Virus record (IMG/VR): IMGVR_UViG_2537561979_000004
Location: 1-10,867 of that record
DNA length: 10,867 bases
Reading direction: 5' to 3' (one strand)
Source: a virus
Lineage: Duplodnaviria; Heunggongvirae; Uroviricota; Caudoviricetes
Shown here: positions 1 to 10,358 of the stretch, piece by piece
How the letters are laid out: every line of letters begins with the position of its first letter
Numbering within the stretch: position 1 is the stretch's first letter
Position numbers and translations under genes: made by a program
The notes under the pieces: generated by a model
The model's database searches: none
The model's input: the letters and a program-made list of their open reading frames with translations, nothing else
Told to the model about the DNA's origin: nothing

Positions 1-441
1 GAAGGCTGGCTGTATCTGGCAGTGGTCATTGACCTGTGGTCACGTGCCGTTATTGGCTGGTCAATGTCGCCACGCATGACGGCGCAACTGGCCTGCGATG
101 CCCTGCAGATGGCGCTGTGGCGGCGTAAGAGGCCCCGGAACGTTATCGTTCACACGGACCGTGGAGGCCAGTACTGTTCAGCAGATTATCAGGCGCAACT
201 GAAGCGGCATAATCTGCGTGGAAGTATGAGCGCAAAAGGTTGCTGCTACGATAATGCCTGCGTGGAAAGCTTCTTTCATTCGCTGAAAGTGGAATGTATC
301 CATGGAGAACACTTTATCAGCCGGGAAATAATGCGGGCAACGGTGTTTAATTATATCGAATGTGATTACAATCGGTGGCGGCGGCACAGTTGGTGTGGCG
401 GCCTCAGTCCGGAACAATTTGAAAACCAGAACCTCGCTTAG
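1..441 (+). CDS. insF: IS3 transposase OrfB (DDE integrase domain), C-terminal part; 5' end truncated by the window edge
   Basis: Open frame from position 1 ([20 protein letters not shown]...) to TAG at 439-441. Contains the HTDRGGQY and CYDNA motifs typical of IS3-family DDE transposases. Confidence 0.85.
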
Positions 442-471
442 GCCTGTGTCCATATTACGTGGGTAGGATCA
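1..471 (+). mobile_element. IS3-family insertion sequence, 3' portion (5' part lies outside the window); right terminal inverted repeat ends ...GGCCTGTGTCCATATTACGTGGGTAGGATCA at 441-471
   Basis: The ORF translating to ...[15 protein letters not shown]...[10 protein letters not shown]...[11 protein letters not shown] matches the C-terminus of IS3 transposase OrfB as I recall it. The terminal sequence ending TGATC-complement (..GGGTAGGATCA) matches the IS3 terminal inverted repeat recalled from memory. Confidence 0.85.
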
Positions 472-472
472 G

Positions 473-585
473 TATTCGAACGAATTAAGTCAGGTGTAAG
501 TATAAGTGCCATTGCCCGGGAATTCAAAACCTCGCGGCAAACCATTTTAAGAGCCAAAGCAAAACTTCAGACACCTGACATATAA
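473..585 (+). pseudogene. Orphan C-terminal helix-turn-helix fragment (resolvase/transposase HTH_7-like), 5' end removed by the IS3 insertion
   Basis: Frame immediately after the IS3 end translates to [37 protein letters not shown]-stop, a typical recombinase-type HTH with no N-terminal domain in the window. Assignment by pattern only. Confidence 0.35.
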
Positions 586-682: not shown

Positions 683-1000
683 CTACGGCAGTGCTGGCCA
701 TTCAATATCCTGTGCAGTTGACGTATCAACACGGTTCAGCAACACCCGATACTTCTTCCAGGCTTCCACCACCAGCACGACAAGATGCCGCATACAGTGA
801 CCCAGTCAGTCCAGTTTCCAGACAACCAGTGCGTCACCTTTTTGAAGGCGCTTTAAAGCACGTTTTAATCCAGGTCGGCCTGTCCTTATTCCGCTTAATT
901 TATCTTCAAATATTTGTTCACATCCTGCACAAACAAGAGCGTTTCGTTGCAGGTCTGTATTCTGGTCATTTGTTGATACCCTTACATAGCCAATCAGCAC
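683..1000 (-). pseudogene. pin: Pin-type serine DNA invertase N-terminal remnant (GTG start at 1000; MLIGYVRVSTNDQNTDLQRNAL...) interrupted by an in-frame TGA at 806-808, then reading into a tail-fibre-assembly C-terminal peptide ([27 protein letters not shown])
   Basis: Minus-strand translation gives about 65 residues of a Gin/Pin/Hin-type catalytic N-terminus including the Ser nucleophile motif YVRVST. After the stop the same frame shows pin-like [12 protein letters not shown], then a conserved Tfa C-terminal motif. The expected invertase C-terminal HTH is absent on this strand. Confidence 0.7.
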
Positions 1001-1054
1001 GCTGAATCTCCCGTCCAAAAGCACAAATCATGCCATGCAGGCCAGAAACCGCCA

Positions 1055-1080
1055 TTATCTAAAACCTCGGTTTACAGGAA
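1055..1080. other. gix/pix/hix-like 26-bp inversion crossover site (TTATCTAAAACCTCGGTTTACAGGAA)
   Basis: Near-identical, by memory, to the Mu gix site (TTATCCAAAACCTCGGTTTACAGGAA; one mismatch). It lies about 55 bp upstream of the pin start, and the tail-fibre variable frame opens right at its centre. Confidence 0.6.
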
Positions 1081-2026
1081 ACGATAAATCAGGCTTCTGG
1101 CGCATTACAGAAAAACCAGAACGGCGCAGATATTCCGGGAAAAGATACCTTCACCAAAAACATTGGTGCCTGCCGCGCATATAGCGCATGGCTGAATATT
1201 GGTGGCGATAGTCAGGTCTGGACAACTGCGCAATTTATTTCGTGGCTGGAGAGTCAGGGGGCATTTAACCATCCTTACTGGATGTGCAAAGGCTCATGGG
1301 CTTATGCAAATAATAAGGTTATTACAGATACAGGTTGCGGAAATATTTGTCCTTGCAGGTGCTGTGGTGGAAGTTATTGGCACTCGCGGCGCAATGACCA
1401 TACGCGTTACTACGCCGAGCACGTCCAGCGGTGGCGGAATTACTAACGCTCAATTCACTTATATTAATCATGGTGATGCTTACGCTCCTGGCTGGCGACG
1501 AGACTACAACACGAAAAACCAGCAGCCTGCATTTGCTTTAGGGCAAACAGGACGCAGGGTCGCAAATGATAAAGCTGTTGGCTGGAACTGGAATAGCGGT
1601 GTTTATGATGCAGATATCAGTGGTGCATCGACATTAATCCTCCACTTCAATATGAATGCGGGGAGTTGCCCTGCTGTACAGTTCCGCGTGAATTACAGGA
1701 ACGGCGGTATTTTTTATCGTTCAGCGCGTGATGGTTATGGCTTTGAAGCTAACTGGTCAGAGTTTTACACCACAACACGCAAACCCTCTGCGGGGGATGT
1801 TGGTGCATATACGCAGGCAGAATGTAACTCAAGGTTTATTACAGGTATTCGCCTTGGCGGTCTGTCATCTGTTCAGACATGGAAAGGCCCCGGCTGGTCT
1901 GACAGGTCAGGTTATGTCGTTACGGGTTCAGTTAACGGAAACCGTGATGAATTAATTGATACAACTCAGGCAAGGCCAATTCAGTATTGCATTAATGGGA
2001 CGTGGTATAACGCGGGGAGTATTTAA
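1069..2026 (+). pseudogene. stf: Variable C-terminal segment of a side tail fibre (Mu S / P2 H-like invertible-cassette type), apparently frameshifted near 1348-1355
   Basis: From the gix site one frame reads ALQKNQNGADIPGKDTFTKNIGACRAYSAWLNIGGDSQVWTTAQFISWLESQGAFNHPYWMCKGSWAYANNKVITDTGCGNIC. The protein then continues only in the +1 frame (LAGAVVEVIGTRGAMTIRVTTPSTS... to TAA at 2024-2026). No constant N-terminal tail-fibre region precedes it. Confidence 0.65.
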
Positions 2027-2028
2027 CG

Positions 2029-2562
2029 ATGATGCACTTAAAAAACATTACTGCTGGCAACCCTAAAACAAAAGAGCAATACCAGCTAACAAAGCAATTT
2101 AACATCAAATGGCTTTATTCAGATGATGGAAAAAACTGGTATGAGGAACAAAAGAATTTCCAGCCAGACACTTTGAAAATGGTCTATGACCATAACGGCG
2201 TTATTATTTGTATTGAAAAGGATGTTTCAGCAATTAATCCAGAGGGTGCAAGCGTCGTTGAATTACCTGATATTACAGCAAATCGCCGGGCTGATATTTC
2301 GGGGAAATGGATGTTCAAAGATGGCGTAGTGATAAAGCGAACTTATACCGAGGAAGAGCAGAGGCAACAAGCGGAAAATGAAAAGCAAAGCCTGTTGCAA
2401 CTTGTCAGGGATAAAACCCAGCTATGGGACTCACAGCTACGGCTGGGCATCATTTCCGACGAGAATAAACAAAAATTAACCGAGTGGATGCTCTATGCGC
2501 AGAAAGTCGAATCTACAGACACTTCCGGCCTGCCAGTAACGTTTCCCGAACAACCAGAATGA
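2029..2562 (+). CDS. tfa: Tail fibre assembly protein (Tfa / Mu U family)
   Basis: 177 aa beginning MMHLKNITAGNPKTKEQYQLTKQF...KNWYEEQKNFQPDT, matching the conserved Tfa N-terminus as recalled. Starts 2 nt after the stf stop. Confidence 0.85.
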   Translation: MMHLKNITAGNPKTKEQYQLTKQFNIKWLYSDDGKNWYEEQKNFQPDTLKMVYDHNGVIICIEKDVSAINPEGASVVELPDITANRRADISGKWMFKDGVVIKRTYTEEEQRQQAENEKQSLLQLVRDKTQLWDSQLRLGIISDENKQKLTEWMLYAQKVESTDTSGLPVTFPEQPE

Positions 2563-2614
2563 GAGAAGGCCCGCTAGACTATCTTTAATTTCTCGCTCAT
2601 ACAGCCTTGCTTTA

Positions 2615-2651
2615 TGAATAAAACGCACCCCAGCAGCCAGTGCTACTGGGG
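2615..2651 (-). terminator. Probable rho-independent terminator downstream of trkG
   Basis: Inverted repeat CCCCAGCAG/CTACTGGGG (2628-2651, one mismatch, 6-nt loop), followed on the minus strand by TGCGTTTTATTCAT. Confidence 0.45.
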
Positions 2652-2737
2652 ACGGAGGTGTTGCTGGTAAAGTTAGGTATTGGATCAATGAGTGAGTCAA
2701 CATAATATTAAACTCACAATTATAAATCAGCCATATA

Positions 2738-4195
2738 TTAGGAGCGCCAAAAAAAACCTGAAAACAATATAATAACAGGATAAATTTCAAGGCGACCAAG
2801 AATCATAGCTATGCACATTAAACATTTTGCAATGTCATTAAGCACTCCGAATGACGATGCAGTAGCCCCAAAACCTAATCCCATATTATTAATACATGCA
2901 GCCACTGTTGCAAATGATGTAAGAAAATCATATCCCATACCATTTAACACCAGTATAAAAAACACCGTGAAGAGAGTATAAAGAAAAAAGAAACTCCATA
3001 CAGACCTCATTACACGATCTGTAACTATCTTCCCTCCTACATTTACACTCAACAACGCTCTGGGATGAGAAAGCTGATTTATCTCGTGTTTGCTTTGTTT
3101 GAAAAGTATAAGAAATCGAAGTGACTTAATTCCACCACAAGTTGAACCTATACATCCCCCAAAGAAACTTGACAACAGCAAAAACACTATCGTGTGCGTG
3201 GGCCAACTTGCATAATCCTGCGTAGCTAAACCATTATCAGTGAGCATGGAGCTGGCAAGAAAAAACGAATGAATAAAACTTCCATGCAAGTCATACATAC
3301 CTATATGCCAGACCTGGAAAGAGGTAACAATGATCACCCCTAAGGCTATTAACAGAAAGAAACGAAGTTCAATATCTCTGATTAAAGGTTTTATCGTTTT
3401 CCTGCTAATAACAATATACCAAAGAGTGAAGTTGAAAGCCGATAGCAGGGAAAAAGAACCAGCCACCAGCTCAACCAAATAGTTATTAAAATATCCGATA
3501 CTCTCGCTATGAGTTGAGAAACCACCAAGCGAAACTGTGGAAATCCCGTGACAAATAGCATCAAACAAAGGCATTCCTGCAAGTCTATAACAGACAATAC
3601 AAGCAATACCTAATAAAGAATAAGTTATCCACAGTGTCCGTGACGTATCGGCCAGGCGGGGAGTGAGTTTGTCATCCTTAAATGGCCCCGGCATTTCTGA
3701 CTGATAAAGCTTTGCACCACCAATACCCAATAATGGCAATACTGCAACCGCCAGAACAATAACTCCTAAACCACCTATAAAATTTAACTGTGACCGATAG
3801 TACAAATATGCCCGAGGTAATGAACTAACATCATCAATTACAGTTGCTCCTGTTGTTGTTATTCCAGAAACCCCTTCAAACAGAGCATCAATGAACCTTA
3901 AATTAAGTTCTGAGTCAATCCATAAAGGGAATGCACTAATAACAGAAAACAAAATCCAAAACATTACAATTATAATAAACCCATCACGGGTACGTAATTG
4001 AATGCCAGATTTCTTAGTTGTATACCACGCTCCGCCACCAATGCAAAAAAATATAACGAAAGTTATAAAGAAAACGAACAGGATTTTTTCTTTATAAAAC
4101 AATGCTACAACCATTGGTGGCAACATTGAAAGACTATAGAGCCAAACCAAGAACCCACACATATGAGTAACAACTCTTACATGAGATGTATTCAT
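2738..4195 (-). CDS. trkG: TrkH/TrkG-family potassium uptake membrane protein (Rac-prophage TrkG type)
   Basis: Long polytopic membrane ORF that matches K-12 TrkG from MNTSHVRVVTHMCGFLVWLY... onward as I recall it. AT-rich composition typical of prophage cargo. An alternative TTG start at 4213 has a better Shine-Dalgarno (AAGGTGG, 6-nt spacing) than the ATG at 4195. Confidence 0.85.
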   Translation of the reverse strand: MNTSHVRVVTHMCGFLVWLYSLSMLPPMVVALFYKEKILFVFFITFVIFFCIGGGAWYTTKKSGIQLRTRDGFIIIVMFWILFSVISAFPLWIDSELNLRFIDALFEGVSGITTTGATVIDDVSSLPRAYLYYRSQLNFIGGLGVIVLAVAVLPLLGIGGAKLYQSEMPGPFKDDKLTPRLADTSRTLWITYSLLGIACIVCYRLAGMPLFDAICHGISTVSLGGFSTHSESIGYFNNYLVELVAGSFSLLSAFNFTLWYIVISRKTIKPLIRDIELRFFLLIALGVIIVTSFQVWHIGMYDLHGSFIHSFFLASSMLTDNGLATQDYASWPTHTIVFLLLSSFFGGCIGSTCGGIKSLRFLILFKQSKHEINQLSHPRALLSVNVGGKIVTDRVMRSVWSFFFLYTLFTVFFILVLNGMGYDFLTSFATVAACINNMGLGFGATASSFGVLNDIAKCLMCIAMILGRLEIYPVIILFSGFFWRS

Positions 4196-4332
4196 ATCTA
4201 AATATTCTTTCAATTATAACCACCTTGCTGCAATATTATGATTATACTGTATAAAATTTAACTCCTCTTAGATCTTACTTCACTGTTCCTTATGAAACAA
4301 TCATCAAAATGAATCATATTGTAGTTAAGATT

Positions 4333-5757: not shown

Positions 5758-6153
5758 CTAACCTCGCATGTCAAAGCCAGATTTCTGAAAATCTCTGTAG
5801 ACTTCCGGATTGTTGAAGGCCGGAAATTTGGCTTTATGAGCTGCGGACTTTATCGCTTCGCAATAGGCTTTATCACCGTTACTGGTAGATATTTTTAACG
5901 CCGTGCCATCCTGAGAGAATTCCATATGCAACCTGCATTTTTTCCCTTTCCAGTTATGCGGCTCATCAAGTTTGGCATTAATTGCAGCTCTGATTCCCCG
6001 CGCTTGCGCCCCCCATTCATCCTGATCATCCCAGCGTCCTGAACTGCAACTACCTGTAGCAGTAGTTTTGTGGCAATCTGAAGGGTGTAAAGGTGTGCAT
6101 CCCGCAACAAAACCGACCCAAAAAGTCAACATAACGATTTTCTTTAATCCCAC
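5758..6153 (-). CDS. Lipoprotein with divergent TolA domain-III-like C-terminal module (cargo gene 1)
   Basis: GTG start with GAGGAG upstream. Signal peptide MGLKKIVMLTFWVGFVAGC with lipobox Cys. The C-terminal ~80 aa (...GKKCRLHMEFSQDGTALKISTSNGDKAYCEAIKSAAHKAKFPAFNNPEVYRDFQ...) shares the conserved pattern of the TolA C-terminal domain at lower identity. Confidence 0.7.
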   Translation of the reverse strand: MGLKKIVMLTFWVGFVAGCTPLHPSDCHKTTATGSCSSGRWDDQDEWGAQARGIRAAINAKLDEPHNWKGKKCRLHMEFSQDGTALKISTSNGDKAYCEAIKSAAHKAKFPAFNNPEVYRDFQKSGFDMRG

Positions 6154-6303: not shown

Positions 6304-6732
6304 TCAGGGTTTAAAATCCAGCACCCCATTTTGAAATACTTTATATACTTCCGGCGAAGGGGGGGCAGGTATATCAGCATTCTTTATCGCATTCATCGCT
6401 TCACGACATAAATCGAGGTCTCCACTTTCTCTTTTAACCTCCAGTAGAAGGCCATTCGGGGCCATATGCATTCTCAGTGTACACTCTTTTCCTGAATACT
6501 TACTCGCATCCCCGAACTGTTTTTCGATGGCGCTCTTGATTTGATGGGCATACAGACGGATATCCTCACTAACATCAGAAGTACGTTCAGATAAACTCAC
6601 ATACTGTGTCTCTATTGCTTTATCGGAGTAATATGATGTACGGTCATGATAATTTGTCGATACAGCATCAGTGCACCCGATAATAATCCCACTAATAATC
6701 AACGTAAGAATTGATGCGCTACGAAAACCCAT
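6304..6732 (-). CDS. Lipoprotein with TolA domain-III-like C-terminal module (cargo gene 2)
   Basis: ATG with GAGG upstream. Signal peptide MGFRSASILTLIISGIIIGC (lipobox). The C-terminal ~85 aa (IRLYAHQIKSAIEKQFGDASKYSGKECTLRMHMAPNGLLLEVKRESGDLDLCREAMNAIKNADIPAPPSPEVYKVFQNGVLDFKP) aligns closely with the TolA C-terminus as I recall it (...QIKSAIESKFYDASSYAGKTCTLRIKLAPDGMLLDIKPEGGDPALCQAALAAAKLAKIPKPPSQAVYEVFKNAPLDFKP). Confidence 0.75.
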   Translation of the reverse strand: MGFRSASILTLIISGIIIGCTDAVSTNYHDRTSYYSDKAIETQYVSLSERTSDVSEDIRLYAHQIKSAIEKQFGDASKYSGKECTLRMHMAPNGLLLEVKRESGDLDLCREAMNAIKNADIPAPPSPEVYKVFQNGVLDFKP

Positions 6733-9292: not shown

Positions 9293-9486
9293 GCCCCACA
9301 TAGCATGAACAAACACTACATATCAAATAGCTGGTACAAGGATAGAAATACGACATTTATTATTAAAAACGATTAGATAAATTACATTTTAATGTTATGC
9401 AAAAGTTCTTTTTTATCATAACATTTCAATAAAAGCATTACAGATGCAATCATCCCGTCATCATCAATTATTTAAGGTGGTTAAAC

Positions 9487-9978: not shown

Positions 9979-10007
9979 AAAAACACGCATTTATAATGCA
10001 TGTTTTT
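9979..10007 (+). promoter_or_regulatory. Promoter -10 (TATAAT, 9992-9997) embedded in an imperfect inverted repeat AAAAACACGCAT-ttata-ATGCATGTTTTT resembling an NsrR operator
   Basis: 12-bp arms with one mismatch. The core AACACGCATTT-a-TAATGCATGTT matches the 11-1-11 NsrR consensus (AAnATGCATTT-n-AAATGCATnTT, recalled from memory) at about 20 of 22 positions. A TTGACA at 9965-9970 is 21 bp from the -10, too far for a canonical -35. Confidence 0.45.
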
Positions 10008-10019
10008 GAGGAGGTGGTT

Positions 10020-10358
10020 ATGACACACAAGAGAATTCCTAAAGATTGGGTAATCAAACGCTCAACTCCGTTCTTCACAAAAGAGAACGTACCTTCAGCG
10101 TTATTAACACATCATAATACAGCAGCAGGTGTTTTTGGGCAGTTGTGCGTAATGGAAGGCACTGTAACATATTATGGTTTTACTGATGAGAATGCTACTG
10201 AACCGGAGATAAAAGTAGTCATTAATGCTGGCGCTTTTGCAACAAGCCCACCACAATACTGGCACCGTGTTGAACTAAGCGATGATGCTCAGTTTAATAT
10301 TAACTTTTGGGTCGCTCCAGACTTCTCGGGCGAAAAAGTCTATAGCACCAAAAAATAG
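10020..10358 (+). CDS. YeaR-like DUF1971 family protein (TehB N-terminal-domain-like)
   Basis: ATG at 10020 with GAGGAGG 6 nt upstream. Protein MTHKRIPKDWVIKRSTPFFTKENVPSALLTHHNTAAGVFGQLCVMEGTVTYYGFTDENATEPEIKVVINAGAFATSPPQYWHRVELSDDAQFNINFWVAPDF... shares the RSTPF...H.T..GV...L.VM.G.V.Y.G...E..EP......AG.FA..PP..WH..E...D..FNI.F.VAP pattern of E. coli YeaR as recalled. Confidence 0.7.
   Translation: MTHKRIPKDWVIKRSTPFFTKENVPSALLTHHNTAAGVFGQLCVMEGTVTYYGFTDENATEPEIKVVINAGAFATSPPQYWHRVELSDDAQFNINFWVAPDFSGEKVYSTKK

Follow-up and report, generated by a model that had tools for sequence, protein, structure and literature searches.

The locus studied here raises the question of what a variable tail-fibre segment and its assembly gene are doing beside a single gix-like crossover site in a defective prophage: do they belong to an invertible tail-fibre switch, to a part of one that can still be used, or to the remains of one? 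We have addressed it in a window of 10,867 nucleotides (the whole stretch of DNA that was analysed), and very probably what remains there is a Gin/Pin-type invertible tail-fibre switch that no longer functions, a relic within a defective lambdoid prophage similar to Rac.

The window corresponds, with 100% identity, to positions 8698-19564 of its source scaffold GL872107.1 (assembly GCA_000190975.1), a draft scaffold in which it forms a whole contig; stretches of N flank it at both ends, where an IS3 and an IS1 repeat lie, and the contig starts inside the IS3 repeat. Its minus strand encodes a DUF1367 protein, YbcO, a Q-like antiterminator, two TolA-domain proteins, a holin, a lysozyme, Rz and TrkG, which is the gene content of a defective lambdoid E. 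coli prophage of the Rac type. Positions 2575-4300, containing trkG and the start of ynaK, share 99.65% identity with K-12 Rac 3403-1678, and positions 472-771, containing the 3' end of pinR, the spacer and the 3' end of tfaR, share 98.3% identity with K-12 Rac 11198-10899. The Rac order (lysis genes, trkG, ynaK ... tfaR, pinR, ynaE, then uspF and ompN) is found here too, and to the left of the window the source scaffold and its close relatives carry ydfK/ynaE, uspF, ompN and nifJ. K-12 Rac has a complete stfR-tfaR pair, whereas in the window the relic replaces stfR and most of tfaR. The features on which the argument turns are the following (window coordinates).

1-471, plus strand: 3' part of IS3, with the C-terminus of orfB (22-441) and the right inverted repeat, inserted in pinR.
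472-585, plus strand: 3' end of pinR, the Rac orphan invertase gene (HTH domain and stop codon), severed from its 5' part by IS3.
683-771, minus strand: tfaR-type fragment, the last 29 codons and the stop, fused in frame to pin' at 771/772.
1000-772, minus strand: pin'/gin', a 5' fragment of a Gin-family serine invertase gene, pseudogene (GTG start 1000-998, TGA 808-806).
1055-1080, plus strand: gix site, gixR equivalent, TTATCTAAAACCTCGGTTTACAGGAA (outer half 1055-1066, crossover dinucleotide TC 1067-1068, inner half 1069-1080).
1063-2026, plus strand: Sv'(A), variable C-terminal tail-fibre segment, homologue of Mu S' (frame 1 at 1063-1351, frame 2 at 1353-2026).
2029-2562, plus strand: U'(A), an intact tail-fibre assembly (chaperone) gene, tfa, homologue of Mu U' (177 aa; Pfam Caudo_TAP, 2e-36, full profile).
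2563-2576, no strand assigned: half of the U'/U central hairpin and the deletion joint (around 2574-2576; 2-nt TA microhomology).
2575-2600, minus strand: ynaK', the first 26 nt of Rac ynaK (which starts at 3378 in K-12 Rac).
2738-4195, minus strand: trkG, after the ynaK' remnant.

A preliminary description of this DNA, made from its letters alone, had proposed a 26-bp gix-like site with no partner, and both parts of that proposal hold. Mu gixR, read from record AF083977, is identical to the window site at 25 of 26 positions, differing in one base; when Mu gix was searched with up to three mismatches, 1055-1080 was the sole match in the window, and none of 200 shuffled sequences gave any. By its sequence the site thus belongs to the gix/cix/pix family. 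The annotated boundary of the Mu G segment falls at window position 1067/1068, i.e., at the centre of the site, which is present in all the relatives compared and whose inner half is identical to that of the functional relatives. As to the partner, neither the search with up to three mismatches nor a degenerate core pattern revealed a second site in the window, the only additional match of the pattern, at 5769, being at chance level and lacking the CC..GG core. No second gix site was found within 10 kb on either side of the cassette (20.7 kb of the source scaffold), nor in the closest closed genome, although gix-type sites may lie elsewhere in the same genome, beyond the 20.7 kb inspected (in e14 or in Mu-like prophages). 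The intact relatives have two inverted sites, and with one site the inversion of a segment is impossible in principle; Gin requires that a dimer occupy each of two gix sites, and it further needs activation by Fis (PMC3575834). We have also searched a 16-kb stretch of K-12 Rac with the aim of explaining its convergent tfaR/pinR arrangement, and it contains no gix-type site at up to three mismatches.

The site had been placed between pin and the tail-fibre cassette. Its position is right, but pin does not exist as a gene: what adjoins the site is only a truncated 5' fragment, which contains a TGA and is fused to the tail of tfaR. The fragment matches the N-terminal Resolvase domain of Pfam (2e-22) over profile positions 2-94 of 145 only, with no HTH, and the tfaR-type piece to which it is joined covers Caudo_TAP profile positions 104-130 of 131. 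Of the sequence homologous to gin, the 5' 190 nt have been kept (810-1000, inside the match of 94.5% identity to Mu). The Fis-dependent recombinational enhancer of this invertase family is normally located within the 5' portion of the invertase gene, a position that has reportedly been described for it before, and pin' probably still carries this cis element.

The other invertase gene of the region lies further left and on the other strand. This is the real pinR, split by IS3, and neither it nor the pseudogene character of the adjacent pin had been mentioned in the preliminary description. The 3' end of pinR is 100% identical to nt 478-591 of K-12 pinR and matches the Pfam HTH_7 domain of resolvases (3.5e-8); pinR is annotated in three of the related loci compared (L001, L002 and L005). 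The IS3 part matches the Pfam families rve and rve_2 and shares 99.8% identity with annotated IS3 copies in L001 and L003. In the source scaffold both ends of IS3 are visible, together with a 3-bp GTA target duplication. The IS3-pinR junction was sought among 5,426 complete E. coli genomes and was not seen among the matches listed, all of which begin at window position 472; it does occur in the draft source scaffold and in one other draft. Therefore, no complete invertase gene adjoins the site: pin' has the right position and orientation but is truncated, and pinR is interrupted.

The cassette to the right of the site is a different matter, and its description as a variable tail-fibre segment followed by tfa on the plus strand has been confirmed. 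The tail-fibre frame opens directly after the TAA of the outer half-site (...NLGLQETINQASGALQKNQNG...) and is read in frame 1 to about 1351 and in frame 2 onward to the stop at 2024-2026; the protein repaired by correcting the frameshift matches Pfam gp37_C, and U' matches Caudo_TAP. In a search of phage genomes, the Mu stretch formed by the 5' end of gin, gixR, S' and U' shared 94.5% DNA identity with window positions 810-2576, the counterparts in phages D108 and P88 shared 96%, and the Sv'-U' cassettes of P7 and P1 shared 89-96%. The cassette thus consists of homologues of S' and U', of the tail-fibre and chaperone families. It had been likened in its arrangement to the promoter-distal Sv'-U' cassette of a Mu G-type region, and since the window is directly homologous to gin'-gixR-S'-U' of Mu, with the G boundary falling at the site centre, it is the actual promoter-distal half of a G segment, beyond any likeness in arrangement.

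The rest of the switch is missing, as had also been stated. Sv'(A) has neither a start of its own nor a constant region, no constant tail-fibre region (Sc; phage_tail_N or Stf) is present in the window, where ynaK' and trkG lie beyond U', and the window contains no Sv-U cassette other than Sv'(A)-U'(A). The B cassette that accompanies it in relatives (L006, L002) has no counterpart in the window except for a weak paralogy between the tfa genes (77%). Because two sites, a complete invertase, a constant region and two cassettes are all lacking, the locus should be considered a relic of the invertible-segment class and not a member of it.

Comparison with intact segments in related prophages, which had been proposed as a check, yielded relatives with two sites and two cassettes. 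A complete switch is present in a lambdoid prophage that E. coli MSI001 has at the bio/ybhB (att-lambda) locus. Its two inverted gix sites lie at 9364-9389 and 12417-12442 of the extracted locus (L006), the distal one reading TTATCGAATACCTCGGTTTACAGGAA, and they span 3,079 bp end to end. A 961-aa Stf (phage_tail_N) extends across the distal site (...VIEYLGLQETV...) into a variable part of B type, which is followed by a B-type tfa. There are two convergent Sv-U cassettes, the silent A-type Sv'-U' being 99.6% identical to that of the window, and the whole segment is about 94% identical to the Mu G segment. The prophage recurs at this locus in strain T28R, its flanks collinear, but there the 3.09-kb stretch between the sites is inverted (99.7% identity), fusing the A cassette to Sc as a 945-aa Stf, while the outer half-sites stay with the flanks. 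The TAA in the left half of the window site had been dismissed as uninformative, and these genomes bear this out: in intact relatives the outer half-site on the Sc side reads TTATCGAATACC and contains no stop, and the outer halves keep to their flanks on inversion. The pin'-tfa' fusion, the gix site and Sv'(A)-U'(A) are the same in MSI001, T28R and the window, with 99.6% identity over 692-2576, whereas MSI001 and T28R keep J, Lom, the 945-961-aa Stf, the distal gix site and Sv(B)-U(B), all of which are deleted in the window.

In E89 the B cassette lies next to the same pin'-gix at the Rac locus. We have built four junction queries, joining the outer flank P (pin' side) or S (Sc side) to cassette A or B, and at least 80% of the query was covered in 136 (P-A), 228 (P-B), 126 (S-A) and 359 (S-B) complete E. 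coli genomes, counts that mix the lambdoid switch with Mu-like prophages (93-95% identity) and so show the existence of the four types, not their frequencies. The S-A (Sc-A) query, an artificial construct, was matched in real genomes over its full length at 99.7%.

T28R carries the same 64-aa pin' as MSI001. Since both orientations occur beside the same truncated pin'-tfa', the inversions most probably postdate the death of the cognate invertase, and another enzyme, provided in trans, would have inverted the MSI001/T28R segment, as judged from these sequences. This agrees with the report that PinQ, PinR and PinE all invert the P segment of e14 in trans and that PinE inverts the Mu G segment (PMC12529663), and with the e14 phase variation observed in K-12 (PMC4272514).

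The same trans action could in theory extend to the window. The single gix site might still be live, with a trans-acting invertase such as PinE, PinQ or a Mu-like Gin pairing it with gix/pix sites in other prophages, and the orphan site and its enhancer-bearing fragment would then serve long-range inversion or the capture of cassettes between prophages. Its 25 matches out of 26 to Mu gixR and its inner half, shared with functional relatives, would suit this reading, as would the retention alongside of a 5' invertase fragment, which in this family bears the enhancer. Nevertheless, there is no partner within 10 kb on either side, the adjoining pinR has been destroyed by IS3, and the cassette would be frameshifted even if it were recombined. 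Moreover, both sites and the enhancer are needed on one supercoiled domain, in a defined synapse, and recombination between distant sites is rare. The trans action of Pin paralogues on the segment of another prophage has been shown experimentally (PMC12529663), and it is also implied by the comparison of MSI001 with T28R. If this reading were true, large chromosomal inversions or re-capture of the silent cassette could follow, and dead half-switches would be a reservoir for the tail-fibre or anti-phage Stf switches of other prophages, but we consider it very unlikely.

Slightly less likely still is that part of the cassette has been domesticated, so that Tfa (U') or an internally started fibre tip serves the host, for instance by blocking a phage receptor. 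The tfa gene is intact and the exact U'(A) protein was found on at least 1000 contigs, a conservation that could reflect either recent decay or retained use. However, its wide occurrence is explained by intact switches and by Mu/P1-type phages. In relatives without the frameshift, RefSeq annotates a 247-aa ORF from the ATG equivalent to 1282, but the frameshift of this lineage breaks the fibre frame 23 codons downstream of that ATG. Promoter-like sites able to drive Sv' are not above chance in number (3 found versus 4.0 expected in shuffled sequence), although read-through transcripts may exist, as may translation from an internal ATG at 1282 or 1304. Chimeric fibres of cryptic prophages, such as StfE2 of e14, have been reported to block the adsorption of T2 (PMC12529663), but the StfE2 effect needed an inversion that made a full chimeric gene, which is impossible here.

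The loss of the other half of the switch can be read at the right end of the cassette, where the joint was mapped by comparing the window with both the intact segment (L006) and K-12 Rac. The window tracks the intact segment as far as GAGAGAAGGCCCGCTA, half of the AAGGCCCGCTATCGGGCCTT hairpin that lies between U' and U, and past the joint it follows K-12 Rac from nt 26 of ynaK, only TA being shared. In phage orientation, a simple deletion starting after codon 9 of ynaK has taken away the rest of that gene together with the tail genes, Sc, the distal site, Sv and U. We have considered whether an invertase acting at a pseudo-site made this deletion and have rejected it: the joint has only the 2-nt TA microhomology and no gix-like sequence, and the event is therefore attributed to illegitimate recombination. 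The U'-ynaK' joint is reproduced in closed genomes.

The cassette itself carries a further lesion. The apparent +1 frameshift that had been pointed out near 1348-1355 is due to one extra C at 1351/1352, the window having TGTCCTTGC where three relatives (L001, L003 and L006) have TGTCTTGC. Confirmation by resequencing had been advised, and a database test has given the answer. The extra C creates a 240-aa ORF starting MQIIRLLQIQVAEIFVLAGAVVEV..., whose frame otherwise stops after 65 codons, and this exact ORF is present in no fewer than seven contigs, which belong to three NCBI assemblies and to several metagenome assemblies of ENA. These contigs represent at least two left-flank contexts: in one of the assemblies pinR is intact, and one contig differs in its left flank. 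The relic, with its U'-ynaK' joint, also occurs in seven complete genomes that do not have the extra C. As the exact ORF recurs while the seven closed genomes lack the extra base, the frameshift is a real, later mutation of a sub-lineage; it is a genuine allele, not a read error. That an error of assembly or sequencing produced the frameshift, or perhaps even the whole arrangement, is hardly credible: the window is a contig of a draft scaffold with N gaps at the IS3 and IS1 repeats, and the seven complete genomes lack the extra C, but the ORF that depends on it recurs in separate assemblies, the deletion joint exists in closed genomes, and the context is a CC and not a homopolymer run, so this explanation is largely refuted.

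We thus return to the relic, whose history can be proposed as follows. In the ancestral switch, Stf would have been read from Sc through the distal gix site into either Sv-U or Sv'-U', the two cassettes being convergent, and a serine invertase would have recombined the two inverted gix sites, exchanging the cassettes and thereby changing the receptor specificity. The decay would have begun when the invertase gene of the switch was truncated, became fused to the 3' end of tfaR and gained a stop, a state that is common to the relatives with an intact switch. An illegitimate deletion at the 2-nt microhomology, from codon 9 of ynaK through U, would then have left gin'-gixR-S'-U' abutting trkG; the extra C would have frameshifted S' later, and finally IS3 would have split the orphan invertase gene pinR. 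This order is suggested by the distribution of the lesions among a few genomes rather than by a phylogeny. A cassette whose frame is broken, and which has one site only and neither a constant region nor a promoter signal above chance, would be neither invertible nor expressible as a fibre, and the switch has presumably lost its function. The cassette is most likely wholly silent, tfa being an intact ORF that survives only because the decay is recent. Nothing in the data contradicts the reading of the locus as a relic.

The system is of a known kind in a degenerate state, ordinary prophage wreckage that does not depart from known biology: a textbook invertible tail-fibre module in advanced decay inside a cryptic prophage, which matters little in itself. 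It does hold a lesson for annotation, because a 64-aa "recombinase family protein", a "hypothetical protein" and a "tail fiber assembly protein" are pieces of one Mu-G-like switch, and such three-fragment annotations are found in many E. coli genomes. In addition, the U'-ynaK' joint and the extra C at 1351/1352 provide clean markers of an E. coli sub-clade. Of some interest is the complete switch, present in both orientations among natural isolates beside a dead invertase gene, an observation that fits the report of orphan Pin paralogues acting in trans.

Among known systems, the closest is the G segment of Mu, which has the same order and orientation of invertase, site, Sv' and U' as the window; in function, the closest are the P1 C and e14 P segments. 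Compared with it, the window retains the right half only, without gixL, Sc, S-U or a complete gin, and with S' frameshifted; the host elements differ as well, since Mu is a transposable phage and the window belongs to a lambdoid Rac-type prophage. Cassettes are said to have spread horizontally among the fibres of Mu, P1, P2 and lambdoid phages. The C segment of P1/P7 (cin) and the pinB locus of Shigella are complete, functional inversion systems, unlike the window, and the homology to P1/P7 begins inside Sv' (from query positions 326-331 onward), leaving the site and the invertase end outside. The P segment of e14 with pinE is, like the window, a tail-fibre inversion module of a cryptic prophage that belongs to the same recombinase family, but it is a complete, still-inverting segment of 1.8 kb whose reported repeats differ in sequence from the window site. 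The window lies in the equivalent of Rac, with pinR adjoining, pinR (Rac) and pinQ (Qin) being the orphan invertase genes of K-12.

A lambdoid side tail fibre carrying a complete Mu-G-like switch of 3,079 bp was found in E. coli MSI001 (locus L006, 9364-12442) and in E. coli T28R (locus L009, 6139-9217). The comparison of these two loci revealed that the switch lies in opposite orientations in the two isolates, both at the bio/ybhB locus. The invertase gene beside it is, in MSI001 and T28R alike, an identical stump of 64 codons with a tfa tail fused to it, and thus an invertase whose gene lies at another place in the genome appears to be needed for the inversion of this switch.

The same switch appears in other states of decay. 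The Rac site of E. coli E89 (L002) contains a different relic, in which the B cassette, one of the two alternative Sv-U cassettes, adjoins pin'-gix and ynaK is almost wholly kept. The gap between tfa(B) and ynaK' is 159 nt long (L002 10150-10308) and matches neither the intact switch nor the Rac prophage of K-12. This relic looks like an independent deletion that would have started from the opposite switch orientation. Further decay states were observed in E. coli LF3-1 (L003 10430-11580) and in the genome matches H9, H10 and H12; in these strains the B-type Sv is cut by IS1 or IS5 and linked straight to trkG. The switch region constitutes a hotspot for IS-mediated erosion.

The invertase stump is also present in the window, whose features are as follows:

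1-585, pinR interrupted by IS3 after nt 481 of K-12 pinR (7166-9282 in L010, the source scaffold)
683-1000, minus strand, in-frame fusion of the pin' N-terminus to the tfaR' C-terminus
5758-6153, minus strand, small gene for a lipoprotein-like protein whose C-terminal domain is of the TolA type (Pfam TolA)
6304-6732, minus strand, second small gene of the same type
9996-10358, plus strand, TehB-like/DUF1971 gene

The pin'-tfaR' junction recurs in L001, L002, L003, L006, L007, L009, L011 and L014, occupying two distinct prophage loci, i.e., the Rac site and the bio/ybhB site, and in RefSeq the fusion carries two labels, 'recombinase family protein' (64 aa) and partial tfa. This junction is fixed and widely distributed. 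The frameshifted cassette and its pin' were also found on the ENA metagenome contig ERZ23878415 k141_4615 (L014 4534-5945), where other features lie to the left, namely methyltransferase, a tfa fragment of 101 aa, abhydrolase, omptin and integrase; this change of flank suggests that the relic moved between contexts through recombination inside the short tfa' segment.

The TolA-domain gene pair sits between the Q-like antiterminator and holin genes, a typical moron position, and its products could hamper the Tol-dependent entry of colicins or phages. Immediately past the remnant of the prophage, at its early-region end, lies the TehB-like/DUF1971 gene, and an IS1 is located at the contig end on that side.

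The IS3 insertion in pinR is flanked by a 3-bp target duplication (GTA). It was not found in the best matches among 5,426 complete E. coli genomes; these matches all start just beyond the junction. PinR has been published as a trans-acting inverter of the P segment of e14 (PMC12529663); if so, this activity would be lost in the strain carrying pinR::IS3.
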